Part shown: in pieces, positions 7,789 through 28,249 of the stretch | How the letters are laid out: every line of letters begins with the position of its first letter | Numbering within the stretch: position 1 is the stretch's first letter | Origin: a bacterium | GTDB taxonomy: Bacteria > Armatimonadota > Zipacnadia > Zipacnadales > Zipacnadaceae | Direction: 5' to 3' | Assembly: GCA_030615605.1 (NCBI GenBank) | Contig: JAUWYY010000011.1 | Coordinates: forward strand, 3,037-67,036 | Length of the DNA: 64,000 bases | Notes under the pieces: model-generated | What the model saw: the letters and a program-made list of their open reading frames with translations, nothing else | The model's database searches: none | Told to the model about the DNA's origin: nothing | Made by a program: the position numbers and the translations under genes

Positions 7789-8182
7789 AGCTGCTCTCTC
7801 CTTCTCTGCGAGTCTTTGTGTAGTTGATGCTGTGTGTAGCCGCACAGCGGATTGGAATCCGCGTGCTGACTGTCTAGCCCAACTTGCTGAATCTTTAATG
7901 AACTTCGACGAATGGTGCGATCTCTGGTTCAAATGAGCGGGCAGCCGAGTTTTTGTGCTGCTTTCGTGAAGTATTATAATGAATAATGCCTACAAACGCA
8001 ACCCCAGCCCCTTCTGGATGTGCAAAACCAGGCTGGCCAGCCATTGTAATTAGCCTGCTGGGGGTAGACCAGTTGGGAGGTTTGCCGCCCCATTTCGAGA
8101 AGACTACTGGCACCAACGCGGCCCAGGGTAAGGCGCAGCGTGCCGCGCAGTCGTGAATATCTGTCCAGTTAGAGGCAGTGAG

Positions 8183-9739
8183 ATGATCCGAAAGGAAACA
8201 AAGCCGGAGAGCCTTGCCGAATTCGCCACCGATGAAAGTGGCATTGTGCAGGCCCGCGATGTCGAGGCCGTCTGCTTTCCCGAATCAGAGCAGGAAATCT
8301 GTGAGCTGTTCGCAGAGGCCAACGAAACCAGCACCCTGGTTACCACTTCGGGCGCGGGCACTGGCCTCAATGGCGGCCGGGTGGCTATCCACGGTGGGCT
8401 GGTCCTGGCCACGCAAGAGCTGCGTGCTCCCCAGCCCCGTGAGCTGCCCGCCATCGAGGCGGAACAGTTCGGAAAGCAGTATGTCATATACCTTGATCAG
8501 GAACGCCTGGAGGCCCACGTACCGGCTGGGGTCTCCACTGAGCTGCTGGATCAGATGCTGCCCGAGGGATTGCTTTACCCGCCTGATCCCACCGAAAAGT
8601 CCGGCTTCATCGGCGCTAACATCGCCTGCAACGCCTCGGGATCGCGCACCTTTCACTATGGCGCCAGCCGCCACTGGGTGCTGGGCTTGCGGGTTGTGTT
8701 GCCCACCGGTGATATTATTGATATAAGTCGCGGCGATTGCACTGCCGACAGCGAGCTGCGCTTTGCCAGCCAGTCGGGGAGGGAATACGCCATCCCCCTG
8801 CCCTCCTACCAGATGCCCGCGGGCAAGAACGCCGCCGGCCTCTATGCCCGCCCCGGTATGGATCTGGTGGATCTGTTCGTCGGCAGCGAGGGCATTTTGG
8901 GTGTAATCAGCGAGGTCCGCCTGAAGCTCACCGAGCGGCCCGATAACATACTTGGCGAAATTGCCTTCTTCCCCAGCGAGGCTGAGGCTCTGGGATTCAT
9001 TGACGATCTGCGCACGGCTGCCGCCGGGGCTATGACTGTCCTGTCCATTGAGTACTTCGACAGCAACTCGCTGGGTTTTATGGAGCATGAGGTGCTGGCG
9101 GGTAAAGACTACGGAGCGGCTGTCTACACCGAGGTAGTGGGCACACTAGATGAGCTTGACCCACTCATAGCGGCGCTGGACGCCAACAACTATGCTGCGG
9201 ACTGGTTCGCTGAGGGTGGCGAAGAAGCCGCCGAGCAAAAAGGGTTTCGCCATTCGCTCCCTGATGAGGTGCACAGCTACCTGCGCCGCCACAATAGCCA
9301 GGCCTGGACCACTGACTTTGCCGTCCCGGCTGAGAAGTTTCCCGAGATGCTCCAGGCTTATCACGCAGCGGGTGTGGCCCTGCGGGAGAAATTCCCCCGG
9401 GAAGGTAAGCATTATCTGGTGTTTGGCCACATCGGTGATTATCACCTGCATGTTGAGTTTATCGCTCACACTGAAGACGAACTACGCCTCGCCAGGCAGC
9501 TTTACGCCGATCTAGCCCGGCAGGCCATCGCCTGGGGCGGAACGGTGAGCGCTGAGCACGGTGTAGGCAAAAAGACGCTGACTGTAAATGGCCGGACTAT
9601 CCCCTACCTGGAATTGATGTACGGTAAGCAGGCCGTGATGGAGATTGCCCGCGCCAAGCAGGTGCTGGATCCCAATCTGATACTCAACGTCGGGAATATG
9701 GTGCCGAAGCAGTATCTCCAGGAAATGGCAGCAAACTAA
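8183..9739 (+). CDS. FAD-linked oxidase / GlcD-type dehydrogenase
   Basis: It has an FAD-binding type-4 pattern (VTTSGAGTGLNGG; LYPPDPTEKSGFIGANIACNASG; GSEGILGVISEVRLKL) and a C-terminal GGTVSAEHGVGKKT. I prefer the ATG at 8183 over the GTG at 8153. Confidence 0.8.
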   Translation: MIRKETKPESLAEFATDESGIVQARDVEAVCFPESEQEICELFAEANETSTLVTTSGAGTGLNGGRVAIHGGLVLATQELRAPQPRELPAIEAEQFGKQYVIYLDQERLEAHVPAGVSTELLDQMLPEGLLYPPDPTEKSGFIGANIACNASGSRTFHYGASRHWVLGLRVVLPTGDIIDISRGDCTADSELRFASQSGREYAIPLPSYQMPAGKNAAGLYARPGMDLVDLFVGSEGILGVISEVRLKLTERPDNILGEIAFFPSEAEALGFIDDLRTAAAGAMTVLSIEYFDSNSLGFMEHEVLAGKDYGAAVYTEVVGTLDELDPLIAALDANNYAADWFAEGGEEAAEQKGFRHSLPDEVHSYLRRHNSQAWTTDFAVPAEKFPEMLQAYHAAGVALREKFPREGKHYLVFGHIGDYHLHVEFIAHTEDELRLARQLYADLARQAIAWGGTVSAEHGVGKKTLTVNGRTIPYLELMYGKQAVMEIARAKQVLDPNLILNVGNMVPKQYLQEMAAN

Positions 9740-10533
9740 TGGCTGTTGTGGGTCAGGCACAGGGGACGCTGCTGCGTGGTGGGAGGCCAAAATACTCCCA
9801 GTACGAGCCAGCTATTTGGGTACGCCAGCGTATTGCCGACAAAGAAGTACGTTTCCCTTGTGGGGCCACACAGAACATCAAGGAACTTCTCCCTAACCTT
9901 GGCTATTGCGGCCGGTTCATTTCCTTGACTCTCTTCGACCATATTGAAGTAGAGTACCCCCAACTCCCAATCCTCGACCATCAACGTATGGGTGCCCTTG
10001 CAGTTGTAGTCATCACACCGGAACACATATTGGAACTTGTAGGGAAGCTTCTGCAGCGGCTTACGATCCGGACCGAACAGCATATACTGATGGAGCCTCT
10101 CACGGTCCTTTGAAGACCAATCTCTTGCCACGGGTGTGCATTTCAGATCCAGTACCTCCGCAGGCTTGACAATCCCCAATGATCGGCCCTGCTCAGTCAG
10201 GCGCTCGATGGATTGGCTGAGCCATGGGAGGACTATTCGCCTCCGTTCTGCCCATCCATTGGCCGTGTCAATGGGCCGGCCAACGAGGCTGATTGATTCA
10301 CTATCAGGGAGATAGGTCTCTTCACGAGAATCTTTGGGGTTCCTTACTGCATCGACTTCTATCCATTGGTATTTGCGATACTGCTGACCATAGGGGAGGT
10401 ATCTGAATCGGACCGGATATAGGCGAACAAACCCTAGTCCTGGGCTGACACCGGCTGTGCACACCAACTCATCATATCTCTCTGAGACCACCGGGTAGGT
10501 CTTGACGGTAATAAGCACTCTCAGATGTGGCAT
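9736..10533 (-). CDS. Hypothetical 265-aa protein with no family I can name; downstream partner of the DUF488 fusion gene
   Basis: The ORF is uninterrupted and sits 9 nt after the upstream stop on the same strand. It contains a C-x5-C-x3-H patch (FRCDDYNCKGTHTL) and has no signal peptide or TM segment. Local GC is lower than in the flanking genes. Confidence 0.6.
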   Translation of the reverse strand: MPHLRVLITVKTYPVVSERYDELVCTAGVSPGLGFVRLYPVRFRYLPYGQQYRKYQWIEVDAVRNPKDSREETYLPDSESISLVGRPIDTANGWAERRRIVLPWLSQSIERLTEQGRSLGIVKPAEVLDLKCTPVARDWSSKDRERLHQYMLFGPDRKPLQKLPYKFQYVFRCDDYNCKGTHTLMVEDWELGVLYFNMVEESQGNEPAAIAKVREKFLDVLCGPTRETYFFVGNTLAYPNSWLVLGVFWPPTTQQRPLCLTHNSH

Positions 10534-10542
10534 CAGTTGCTC

Positions 10543-11418
10543 CTATAGATGCAGGACCGGGAGGCCGGCGATATCGGCTATGATGTCGGCCAGAACACTG
10601 CGATGACATTCTGAAGGATCTGCCTCAAGGCAGAGCAGTGCGAAGGGGTGAGCAGTAAGTTTCTCAGCGATCGCCCGGACAAGGGGCAATTCGGATTCAG
10701 TGATACGCTTGCGGTAGGCGGCAAACAGCTCTTTGCGCGCGAGGGCACTCTGCGAGTTATTGCGTTCGTCGCTAGCGATCCCCAGTGCAGGGTGGATAGA
10801 ATAAGACAGGCCAAGTCTTTCGAGGTGTTGTGATAGGGTACTGCCATGAAATCCATAGCGGCGCGACAAAGGTGTAGCTCGCACATCGGCCACACCAGCC
10901 AGCCCTTTGCGGAGAAGAAGATTCAGTACGCTGTCTATACTTTTCCCAGAATATCCAAGGGTGTAGACGGCTGGTTCCGCGGCAGGCTTGCTTACCGGAG
11001 CTTCAACGAGGTCGGACCGCTCACTCAAAAGTGAAAACCAGGGGTACTGGCGGTAGGTGTACGTCAGCAGATGTTCATGCGACCAGCCGCCGTACTTACG
11101 CACTATCTCCCGCACAGCCATATTGGTGCCCGAGGAAAGACTGGCGTGCAGCCCGCTGGCTGTTTCGATGCCAGATTTACCCTCCGCAACTAGTCTGGCG
11201 TCTACAAGCTTCTGAATATCGCGATATGCAACGAATGAAAACGCGCCATACTGATAGGGAAGAAAGTCGTAGGGCGAGTTGTCCAGCCCCCACTCAGTCT
11301 CGTTCGCCAGAAGAAAGAGCCACTTCATCAAACACGTCTTGCGCGCACGGGCACCGTTTTCGGTTAGGAACTGGAGGATCAGGCGTCTTCCCATTGTAAG
11401 CCTGGGAAGCTTGTTCAT
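10543..11418 (-). CDS. Fusion protein: SocA/Panacea (DUF4065)-like N-terminal domain + DUF488 C-terminal domain
   Basis: The C-terminal half matches the DUF488 pattern (VYTLGYSGKSID...VADVRATPLSRRYGF...ALLCLEADPSECHRSVLA). The N-terminal segment KWLFLLANE...YDFLPYQYGAFSFVAYRDIQKLV resembles DUF4065. The ATG at 11416-11418 is preceded by GGAGG. Confidence 0.75.
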   Translation of the reverse strand: MNKLPRLTMGRRLILQFLTENGARARKTCLMKWLFLLANETEWGLDNSPYDFLPYQYGAFSFVAYRDIQKLVDARLVAEGKSGIETASGLHASLSSGTNMAVREIVRKYGGWSHEHLLTYTYRQYPWFSLLSERSDLVEAPVSKPAAEPAVYTLGYSGKSIDSVLNLLLRKGLAGVADVRATPLSRRYGFHGSTLSQHLERLGLSYSIHPALGIASDERNNSQSALARKELFAAYRKRITESELPLVRAIAEKLTAHPFALLCLEADPSECHRSVLADIIADIAGLPVLHL

Positions 11419-11475
11419 TGTAACCTCCGCCTCTAACTGCGGTGTTGTGCTGCGATTGGCGGAACCTTTGTCAAT

Positions 11476-11484
11476 ATTATAACA
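11476..11484 (-). promoter_or_regulatory. Candidate extended -10 promoter (TGTTATAAT) for the DUF488 cassette
   Basis: The minus strand reads TGTTATAAT within an AT-rich 80-nt spacer between the rlmN stop and the cassette start. The -35 element is poor. Confidence 0.3.
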
Positions 11485-11507
11485 CAACCACCGAAAGAAT
11501 ACTATAA

Positions 11508-12533
11508 TTACCGGCGTATATGTGGCTGTCGCTGGCGCAGTTGGCCGCAGGCTGCGTCTATCTCCGTTCCCTTGCTGTAGCGTACGCTGGCATTGATGCC
11601 CTTGTGCCGCAGTTGTACACAGAATCGGTCTACGCGCCTGGGGGTTGGTCGCCGAAAGTTGGCGTGGCCTACTGCGTTGAAGGGAATGATGTTGACGTGG
11701 TGTCGCAGGTCACCAACCAATTCGGCCAGGCGGCTGGCCTGCTCCAGGGAGTCATTGACGTCCGCCATCAGCACATACTCGAAGGTAACGGGCTGTCCGC
11801 CGGTTACTCGCGTAAAGTACTGGCAGGCTGCCAGCAGTTCTGTAATACTCCAGCGTGCGGCACCGGGCATTAGCTCCTGGCGCTGGCAGTCGGTGACGGC
11901 GTTCAGTGATACGGCAAGCTCCACCCCCAGATTCATATCTGCCAGCCTGCGTATGCCCGGCACCAGCCCCGCGGTAGAGACTGTTATGTGGCCGGGTGAT
12001 AGGTCAAGCGTGTGGGGATCGGTAAAGCGCCGGATGGCCGCGACCACATTGTCCAGATTTGCCAGCGGCTCGCCTACCCCCATAAAGACAATGTTACGCG
12101 GCTTGTGGGTGACTCGCTGGACTGCGACTTGTTGACCAACTATCTCTCCAGTAGTCAGATTCCGCCCCACGCTTCCGAGCGCCGAAGCACAAAACAGGCA
12201 GCCCATCGCGCAGCCGACCTGACTGGACAGGCAAAAGGTATAGTAGGTGTCCATTGGGATGCTTACGCACTCCACCTGGACCTCATCCGGATACTCTAGC
12301 AGATACTTGGTCGTCGGCTGGCCGGCAGATTTCACTATGCGGGGACAATCGAGCTGAAACCGAGCGGCCAATGCTTGCTGCAGCGGATGGGGGAGGGTGG
12401 TCATCTTTGCGAAGTCGGCTGCACCGTGATGGTAAATCCACTCAAATATCTGGTCGGCACGGTATCGCGGCTCGCCGCAGTCGGCCAACCATTGGACCAA
12501 CTGTTGGTGACTCAGTTCGTAGAATAGCTCCAT
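11508..12533 (-). CDS. rlmN: 23S rRNA (adenine2503-C2)-methyltransferase, radical SAM
   Basis: YRADQIFEWIY is present at the N-terminus. The radical-SAM cluster motif reads GCAMGCLFCAS. The length is 341 aa. Confidence 0.9.
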   Translation of the reverse strand: MELFYELSHQQLVQWLADCGEPRYRADQIFEWIYHHGAADFAKMTTLPHPLQQALAARFQLDCPRIVKSAGQPTTKYLLEYPDEVQVECVSIPMDTYYTFCLSSQVGCAMGCLFCASALGSVGRNLTTGEIVGQQVAVQRVTHKPRNIVFMGVGEPLANLDNVVAAIRRFTDPHTLDLSPGHITVSTAGLVPGIRRLADMNLGVELAVSLNAVTDCQRQELMPGAARWSITELLAACQYFTRVTGGQPVTFEYVLMADVNDSLEQASRLAELVGDLRHHVNIIPFNAVGHANFRRPTPRRVDRFCVQLRHKGINASVRYSKGTEIDAACGQLRQRQPHIRR

Positions 12534-28095: not shown

Positions 28096-28170
28096 CGGGC
28101 CTGTAGCTCAGCGGCAGAGCAGTCGGCTCATAACCGATCGGTCGGTGGTTCGAATCCGCCCAGGCCCACC
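28096..28170 (+). tRNA. tRNA with CAT anticodon (elongator Met, or Ile2 if lysidine-modified); encoded CCA
   Basis: I folded the cloverleaf by hand. It has acceptor GGGCCTG/CAGGCCC, D arm GCTC-AGCGGCA-GAGC, anticodon arm GTCGG-CTCATAA-CCGAT, a 5-nt variable loop, T arm GGTGG-TTCGAAT-CCGCC, discriminator A and CCA. The G1:C72 pair argues against an initiator tRNA. Confidence 0.9.
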
Positions 28171-28249
28171 ACTGAGGTGTAAGTGTCCACCACTCTCCCC
28201 AGCGATAGCACCGTAGCGTCTGGCAGGGTGGTTTTAACACTGTTGAGGC

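Follow-up and report, generated by a model that had tools for sequence, protein, structure and literature searches.

Introduction

Panacea-type (DUF4065) domains are known as neutralisers of toxins (PMC8832971; PMC13621843). Loci built around them have been accepted as toxin-antitoxin (TA) loci when two genes lie no more than 100 nt apart, when the architecture is found in at least two species and when no operon of more than three genes is involved (Kurata et al., 2022, PMC8832971). Proteins with a DUF4065 domain have been reported to be homologous to the C-terminal domain of DarG, a protein that consists of a macrodomain and a C-terminal DarT-binding domain (PMC13621843). The two-gene cassette described here encodes a protein, A, in which a domain resembling these is fused to a DUF488 domain, and a second protein, B, with a predicted double OB (oligonucleotide/oligosaccharide-binding) fold. 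It lies on the minus strand of a 64,000-nt stretch of DNA from an Armatimonadota bacterium (assembly GCA_030615605.1, contig JAUWYY010000011.1, positions 3,037 to 67,036), referred to below as the window. As further background, the antitoxin domain of DarTG1 is NADAR, and RapZ-C, DUF488 and DUF4326 reportedly form one clade for which DNA-end processing in conflict systems is said to have been predicted.

The closest described system is PDC-M19, a PADLOC candidate (cassette CAS_00089, FAM_02799>>FAM_02993) and one of 145 PDC systems that were found by 'guilt-by-embedding' in BREX, DISARM or type I restriction-modification (RM) loci; the RefSeq count of PDC-M19 cassettes was 174 (Payne et al., 2024, bioRxiv 10.1101/2024.01.29.577857). 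A text search of the literature gave no paper naming PDC-M19 and no description of its domains. Judged by profile matches the pair in the window is a member of PDC-M19: protein A matches PDLC04505 (PDC-M19A) over its full length (E 2.2e-62, residues 34-307 on profile positions 5-285 of 294) and protein B matches PDLC04508 (PDC-M19B; E 8.3e-79, residues 1-256 on profile positions 1-266 of 269). A first reading of the sequence, the original prediction, had taken the compact, island-like layout with an antitoxin-type domain as typical of TA or phage-defence modules, and this is supported here. Both genes are already modelled as this candidate.

PADLOC flags the pair already; what is new here are the domain and fold assignments, the pattern of partner swapping and the population evidence of mobility and variation. 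From sequence, structure models and analogy it is proposed, with about as much confidence as doubt, that the pair is a self-contained, mobile TA-like or defence module in which B would be the effector and A a DarG-like antidote.

Linkage of gene B to DUF488 and exchange of partners

The association of B with DUF488 was counted over the 80 best loci of B in species genomes and over 65 IMG/VR contigs with B, of which 61 loci could be evaluated. A DUF488 gene flanks B in 77 of the 80 genome loci; in 76 the DUF488 gene is directly upstream in the same orientation and the matched segments are 5-86 nt apart, and in one it is convergent to B. In the remaining three loci, all from Chloroflexi, DUF488 is replaced by an ASCH-domain protein of 165-191 aa that overlaps the start of B. 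Among the viral loci DUF488 is adjacent to B in 60 of 61, upstream in 40 (30 of them with a Panacea-like domain), convergent in 19 and downstream on the same strand in one; the single exception has a 118-aa DUF4326 protein downstream of B (77 bits). Sampling in the reverse direction gave the same picture, i.e., A-type proteins taken independently all have B downstream. The two families, on whose co-occurrence the original prediction depended, are therefore together almost without exception. Pairwise distances among A proteins and among B proteins are also correlated (Mantel r 0.73, p 0.001). The locus agrees with the definition of Panacea TA loci cited above: the gap is 9 nt in the window and 5-86 nt in the 76 loci of many phyla, and the flanking genes are variable.

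On plasmids of Rhizobium, Streptomyces, Burkholderia and Arthrobacter and in seven Gordonia phages, B is paired with a short convergent DUF488 protein that has no Panacea domain. For this reason the constant pair is, as far as the gene contexts tell, B and a DUF488-type enzyme, and the Panacea domain is an add-on of one architecture. The partner enzymes of B are exchangeable, DUF488, DUF4326 and ASCH all being found next to B.

In the seven Gordonia phages the DUF488 gene next to B is mis-annotated as 'HipA toxin'. Gene 42 of phage Nymphadora (NC_031061.1) is one of these and codes for a short DUF488 protein (Pfam E 1.2e-29). It converges on gp43, the homologue of B. The pair lies within the integrase-repressor-cro immunity region, and 1 nt is shared by gp43 and the end of gp44, the annotated immunity repressor. 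The idea that gp44 of the Gordonia phage or the 'DNA-binding protein' of pYS1 is a disguised Panacea protein was rejected, as hhalign gave a probability below 1% for each, and BLASTP of gp44 with A gave nothing. An archaeal B protein of 288 aa is encoded on the Sulfolobus islandicus conjugative plasmid pSOG2 (3992-5352), where it is followed by a 168-aa protein in which no DUF488 domain was detectable.

The protein encoded by gene B

Protein B gave no match in Pfam, NCBIfam, PDB sequence or PDB profile searches. It belongs to phrog_25907 (PHROG E 5e-54) and to a family of unnamed proteins that form at least 1,911 clusters at 90% identity and have at least 573 loci in species-representative genomes of many phyla. 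The AlphaFold2 model of B is confident (predicted local distance difference test (pLDDT) 91, predicted template modelling score 0.87) and consists of two beta-barrels. The top Foldseek matches are all OB-fold DNA binders, i.e., RPA, the HIN-200 proteins AIM2, IFI16 and p202, CST, Teb1 and baculovirus LEF-3. On the model, B is thus a predicted nucleic-acid binder with a tandem OB fold. The original prediction had called this 265-aa protein unclassifiable, which is too strong for a member of a large family with a confident fold model.

In an alignment of B over bacteria, phage and archaeal plasmid the residues S17, C25, R37, D68, R70 and E72, all in the first barrel, as well as W94, R97, S118, Y169 and D188-W189-E190 are invariant. 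Read from this alignment, the invariant residues are more acidic than expected for a pure binder. A Cys/His patch pointed out earlier is also present, with a spacing (C173-x4-C178-x3-H182) one residue shorter than the CxxxxxCxxxH originally given. The 41 close homologues all keep it unchanged; C178 and H182 do not hold throughout the family and are lost in some distant members. Together with C25 the patch may form a zinc site.

The Pfam family DuOB (PF22557) was considered as a home for B and rejected, as none of the 41 close homologues matched it at E <= 10. Its sole match was to the homologue on a Sulfolobus plasmid, weak and partial (18.7 bits against a cut-off of 27, E 0.0019), and a literature search on DuOB gave only irrelevant papers.

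The protein encoded by gene A

Protein A is a member of phrog_14939 (PHROG E 4.5e-34) and its AlphaFold2 model has a pLDDT of 92.7. The C-terminal half is the clear DUF488 domain that had been recognised in the original prediction, with 74.9 bits against a cut-off of 22.2 for PF04343 (E 1e-20, profile positions 1-120 of 121). The motif C263-x-E265 ... C271-H272-R273 is invariant in 40 of 40 homologues and sits at a strand-loop-helix junction of the model, where C263 ends the strand and H272 and R273 open the next helix. The profile DUF488-N3a, an 'active subclade', scores 25.4 bits on protein A, just below its cut-off of 27. Judged by these residues the DUF488 domain looks catalytically intact. 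Weak Pfam matches to DUF4326 fall on the same domain, and Foldseek matches it to Rossmann-like domains of the tetrapyrrole/RsmI-type methylases. The latter matches are presumably to be expected of the rhodanese-phosphatase superfamily, to which we take DUF488 to belong. Neither a macrodomain nor a NADAR domain was found in protein A with Pfam. In the literature mentioning DUF488 no functional study or biochemical activity was found, and a search on DUF488-N3 gave nothing.

The N-terminal domain is more divergent. PF13274 (SocA_Panacea) does not match the window protein at E <= 1, neither as a whole nor as the isolated domain, whereas it matches 14 of 40 and 18 of 136 members of the A family, with a best E of 6.4e-7. 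In three relatives checked individually the match runs end to end over profile positions 1-113 (residues about 24-126), with sub-threshold scores of 18.8-23.5 bits against a gathering cut-off of 25.7. Residues F35, Y50, F52, P54, Y55, S61 and F62 of the domain are invariant in the homologue alignment. The best PDB match of the A model is 7yk3_D/B (Foldseek E 3.8e-3, probability 1.00, 154 columns, root-mean-square deviation 4.3). From the chain length and the description in PMC13621843 we infer that chains B and D of 7YK3 are the toxin-binding C-terminal domain of DarG and that the match falls on the N-terminal domain of A. There are also weak Foldseek matches of this domain to winged-helix regulators of the MarR, DtxR and BrxR types. 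Most likely the domain is a divergent member of the SocA/Panacea (DUF4065), DarG C-terminal-like family, to judge from the relatives and the model. The resemblance claimed in the original prediction is thereby borne out through the relatives of A, and what was found is homology to PF13274 rather than an ordinary winged helix-turn-helix regulator.

A profile search with the N-terminal domain over 1.84 billion representatives gave 4,020 matches. Among the best 150 of these, most are about 290 aa long, the size of a Panacea-DUF488 fusion, and DUF488 is present in 108 of the 136 that were scanned. Other candidates for A were rejected: LisH and Mitofissin matched the N-terminal domain in the direct Pfam scan at noise level only, and MbnC in the PDB profile search was non-significant (E 0.056). 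As a separate observation, the tail (403-542 of 554) of the PADLOC type I restriction profile 'Specificity_I' matches A residues 24-152 (about 10963-11349; E 3e-6), which points to a Panacea-like extension in some HsdS subunits.

Distribution and mobile carriers

Phages, plasmids, bacteria and archaea all have the pair, with a patchy distribution over many bacterial phyla. Most of the copies are on chromosomes, as 'solo' pairs that have a promoter to themselves. Their neighbours are variable and mostly housekeeping genes, with an occasional IS110 transposase, integrase and methyltransferase, or RelB-type gene. Homologues of B were found on 25 plasmids, 11 of them conjugative, on Sulfolobus conjugative plasmids, in seven Gordonia phages and on the 65 IMG/VR contigs; on plasmid pRL8 the B gene is near toprim/DUF3991 and DUF1419 genes. 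The carriage in phage immunity regions and on conjugative plasmids was counted toward a conflict module.

The same carriers, the pRL8 neighbourhood and the existence of PHROG families for both proteins could also be taken to mean that the module serves the mobile element itself, by protection of single-stranded DNA, by counter-defence or by pure addiction, and that the chromosomal copies are leftovers. SSB-like (single-strand-binding) proteins are known from the leading regions of plasmids, which fits such a role. It is nevertheless a decidedly doubtful explanation. Solo pairs on chromosomes of many phyla, each with a promoter to itself, make up most of the copies, and PDC-M19 was picked up inside BREX, DISARM or type I RM loci. 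The Nymphadora pair lies in an immunity region, and for genes of such a region one expects expression in the prophage state, which is typical of prophage defence and TA genes. Addiction, for its part, is compatible with an antidote and an effector.

Variation of the site among relatives

The site was compared in relatives of the window that have 77-92% protein identity in the flanking genes. The order in the window is oxidase, B-A, rlmN and cysE. Loci L082, L083 and L097 have oxidase, B-A and cysE, while L099 has oxidase, rlmN and cysE without the pair, and in L098 the oxidase gene is next to cysE and the site is empty. On this comparison the pair is horizontally mobile, the site being polymorphic for its presence or absence in close relatives. 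The gene rlmN is itself variable here, as it is present in the window and in L099 and is not found between cysE and the cassette or oxidase gene in L082, L083, L097 and L098; the interval between oxidase and cysE is therefore a rearrangement hot spot in the lineage of the window.

These findings bear on another explanation of the pair, that of an ordinary DNA or RNA repair or nucleotide-metabolism function in which B would be an accessory single-strand-binding protein and A a phosphatase-like DUF488 enzyme with a regulatory winged helix. The housekeeping neighbours in the window (rlmN, cysE-like, vanW-like, oxidase), the lack of a defence island nearby and the weak winged-helix matches of A would agree with this. 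A metabolic gene fixed at this position, which the original prediction had named as the contrary outcome, was however not what the relatives have, where the site is empty, holds rlmN only or has another allele of B. The patchy occurrence in many bacterial phyla and on archaeal plasmids, the presence on phages and plasmids, a GC content below that of host genes (see below), also at third codon positions, the lack of an NCBIfam or Pfam functional family for B and the Panacea-type domain in A likewise speak against it, and it is considered highly unlikely.

The variation is not confined to presence and absence. Between the window and L082 nucleotide identity is 90-100% in A, 40-75% in B and roughly 75-95% over most of the oxidase gene. 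A is 91% identical and B, at the protein level, 52%, and the breakpoints in identity coincide with the borders of gene B. As far as such an alignment can tell, it is only gene B that has been exchanged, for an allele of deep divergence. L097 has a frameshift in B near codon 31 (open reading frames of 62 and 236 aa) next to an intact A; the frameshifted B could be a pseudogene or an assembly error. Toxin genes usually decay in this manner, with the partner gene left intact.

The replacement of B alone would also fit a specificity subunit in an arms race, and hence a defence system without relation to TA systems. In such a system B would sense, or be recruited at, single-stranded phage DNA or DNA ends, and the DUF488 domain of A would be the effector acting on the ends; a terminal phosphate would be removed or transferred so that phage DNA could not be replicated or ligated, and the Panacea-like domain would only dock A on B or regulate transcription. 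The DNA-end processing said to have been predicted for the clade of DUF488 and DUF4326 would suit this role. Such a sensor-effector arrangement is in accord with the resemblance of B to DNA sensors and binders (HIN-200/AIM2, RPA), with catalytic residues of DUF488 that appear intact everywhere, with the enzyme varying (DUF488, DUF4326, ASCH) while B is constant, and with the prediction that DUF4326 processes ribose-linked phosphates (Iyer et al., 2022, PMC9503650). We still regard it as unlikely. Panacea-type domains are known toxin neutralisers, the frameshift in L097 hits B and not A, the invariant acidic clusters of B are unusual for a pure binder, and convergent, separately transcribed genes fit a poison and its antidote better. 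An antidote and an effector are favoured over a sensor and an effector because the partner enzymes are exchangeable, as the antitoxin domain varies among DarTG subtypes, and because in one relative the decayed gene is B and not A.

Gene arrangement and surroundings

The coordinates of the cassette and of its parts are given in Table 1. A minus-strand pair between rlmN and an FAD oxidase gene with a gap of 9 nt, as described in the original prediction, was confirmed from the open reading frames, and the peptide strings that had been quoted from gene A are present. The 3' end of gene B shares 4 nt with the convergent oxidase gene. The span first proposed for the cassette, 9736-11487, is right at the gene B end and not at the start of gene A, which is almost certainly the ATG at 11418 and not the TTG at 11487. 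This is because the TTG would place the promoter element inside gene A and because all homologues and the public gene calls begin at the ATG, which is preceded by GGAGG. The AGGAG over the stop codon of gene A suggests that translation of gene B is coupled to that of gene A.

The AT-rich spacer upstream of gene A contains, as had been noticed, a perfect extended -10 element, TGTTATAAT. Its -35 (TAGTAT) is weak, and a simple consensus promoter scan did not call this minus-strand element, the -35 being poor. Relative L082 keeps an extended -10, TGCTACAAT, at an equivalent distance upstream of gene A. On its plus strand the same spacer holds a sigma-70-like match (11479-11508; ATAACA, an 18-nt spacer and TATAAT; 10 of 12 positions) directed toward rlmN in the antisense direction, probably a by-product of the AT-rich and partly palindromic spacer.

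Table 1. Positions of the cassette, its parts and its neighbours (window coordinates unless another locus is named)
Feature	Position	Strand	Basis or remark
Gene A, open reading frame as first called	10543..11487	-	TTG start at 11487
Gene A, likely true extent, 291 aa, Panacea-like and DUF488	10543..11418	-	ATG start
N-terminal helical/winged-helix domain of A, residues about 9-129	11032..11394	-	Sub-threshold PF13274 in relatives, Foldseek, conservation
DUF488 domain of A, residues 160-279	10582..10941	-	Pfam PF04343
Gene B, 265 aa, predicted tandem OB-fold protein	9736..10533	-	Open reading frame, PADLOC and PHROG matches, AlphaFold2 model
First OB barrel of B, residues 3-84	10282..10527	-	DSSP on model; canonical order b1-b2-b3-helix-b4-b5
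Second barrel of B, residues 119-248	9790..10179	-	Invariant Y169 and D188-W189-E190
CxxxxCxxxH patch of B (C173, C178, H182)	9988..10017	-	Sequence
Shine-Dalgarno AGGAG of gene B	10540..10544	-	Overlaps TAG stop of gene A
Shine-Dalgarno GGAGG of gene A	11428-11424	-	Inside spacer
Extended -10 TGTTATAAT	11476..11484 (11484-11476 in reading direction)	-	Read directly
AT-rich spacer, 89 nt, rlmN stop to gene A start	11419..11507	-	43.8% GC; holds promoter element and Shine-Dalgarno
rlmN, upstream neighbour of gene A	11508..12533	-	
FAD-linked oxidase gene, convergent to gene B	8153..9739	+	
B segments compared between relatives	Window 9736-10533; L082 4444-5226; L097 7579-8360		

The GC content of the cassette is 53.7%, compared to a window mean of 58.0% (standard deviation 1.7), which places it in the lowest 0.24% of equal-sized windows. 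At third codon positions the GC content is about 0.59-0.60 in the cassette genes and 0.66-0.70 in neighbouring genes. The dip claimed earlier is thus real but modest, and the contrast of 42-57% with 73% given for it was far too large. Flanking direct or inverted repeats that would mark an insertion were searched for around the cassette, and only short matches at chance level were seen.

No other complete defence system was found with PADLOC among the other 42 open reading frames of the window, where only a few isolated single-protein matches occur (PDC-M51B, 8.5e-14; Aga_SIR2-PNTD, 2e-9; PDC-S65, 2.8e-6). The best of these, to PDC-M51B, is to one component of a multi-gene candidate, and all are probably generic domain matches. 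A tRNA-Met (CAT) on the plus strand at 28097-28171 is the only Rfam or ARAGORN match in the window.

A proposed mechanism

In the favoured model an antidote and an effector would work together in this pair. B, the constant core, would bind single-stranded DNA or another nucleic acid, and its D-x-R-x-E and D-W-E clusters raise the possibility that it also cuts or chemically alters what it binds. The Panacea/DarG-C-terminal-like domain of A would restrain B by direct binding, while the DUF488 domain would protect the nucleic acid of the host cell by removing or preventing a lesion, which is most likely a phosphate or sugar-phosphate group located either on a ribose or at a nucleic-acid end. A would be made first, with B translationally coupled to it. 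If A were lost or titrated, e.g., during phage infection, B would be freed, and the outcome would probably be an abortive-type or nucleic-acid-directed phage defence.

Several points weigh against this model. PDC-M19 is a computational candidate only, and it was not among the candidates tested for anti-phage activity in PMC12881386. Neither in the window nor in most of the genomes sampled is the pair part of a defence island; its neighbours are housekeeping genes. No DarT, toxin or catalytic domain was recognised in B, and its fold matches, at a probability of 0.9-1.0, have low TM-scores of 0.2-0.34. OB-fold proteins are usually harmless binders, and both A and B are large for a classical type II TA pair. 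The convergent arrangement of B and DUF488 is atypical of TA loci. An almost unchanged A beside a B allele of only 52% identity makes a tightly co-adapted binding interface less likely, unless the interface is the conserved core.

A more specific version is that B is an OB-fold enzyme of a new kind, marking or cutting single-stranded nucleic acid, and that DUF488, DUF4326 and ASCH are the corresponding 'erasers', i.e., a reversible modification as in DarTG with a different chemistry. This seems quite improbable. If true, a biochemical function would for the first time be assigned to DUF488 (E. coli YeaO family). DUF488 is very widespread, and its lock to one equally uncharacterised family, B, offers a clean two-gene handle on function. 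If the general model of antidote and effector is true, the OB-fold protein would be a new type of effector in TA and defence biology, and A the second antitoxin, after DarTG, in which a binding domain is joined to an enzyme. Near-identical loci in which only B has been exchanged amount to a natural experiment on specificity. Since PADLOC flags the pair anyway, the practical gain is modest.

Comparison with known systems

B is like RPA, the AIM2/IFI16 HIN-200 proteins, LEF-3 and CST in its predicted fold and in having two barrels. No relation is seen at the sequence level, the TM-scores are low, and the DxRxE and DWE motifs and the Cys/His patch are not known in these binders. At its C-terminus A has a true DUF488 domain in which the conserved Cys/His/Arg site is kept, and one viral locus has DUF4326 instead of DUF488.

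PanAT and SocAB resemble the pair in the Panacea-type domain, in the tight two-gene unit that is kept across species with the antitoxin-like gene first, and in their occurrence in prophages. They differ in that A of the window is below the PF13274 threshold and that many copies of the B-DUF488 system have no Panacea domain at all. The agreement with PDC-M19 is the closest, as the window proteins match both sets of profiles over their full length and gene order and strand are equal; PDC-M19 was however detected within loci of BREX, DISARM or type I RM systems, whereas the copy in the window is in no defence system.

In its logic the pair comes near to DarTG. The domain order in A is reversed relative to DarG, the enzyme is DUF488 and not a macrodomain or NADAR, and the partner B is a predicted tandem OB fold and not a DarT ADP-ribosyltransferase, so that ADP-ribosylation is not implied. 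On the other hand A is a two-part protein, like DarG, in which one enzymatic domain is joined to a putative DarG-C-terminal/Panacea-like binding domain, and the partner acts on, or in the case of B is predicted to bind, single-stranded DNA. In both systems the enzymatic domain is exchangeable between subtypes, as it is in DarTG between the macrodomain and, presumably, NADAR.

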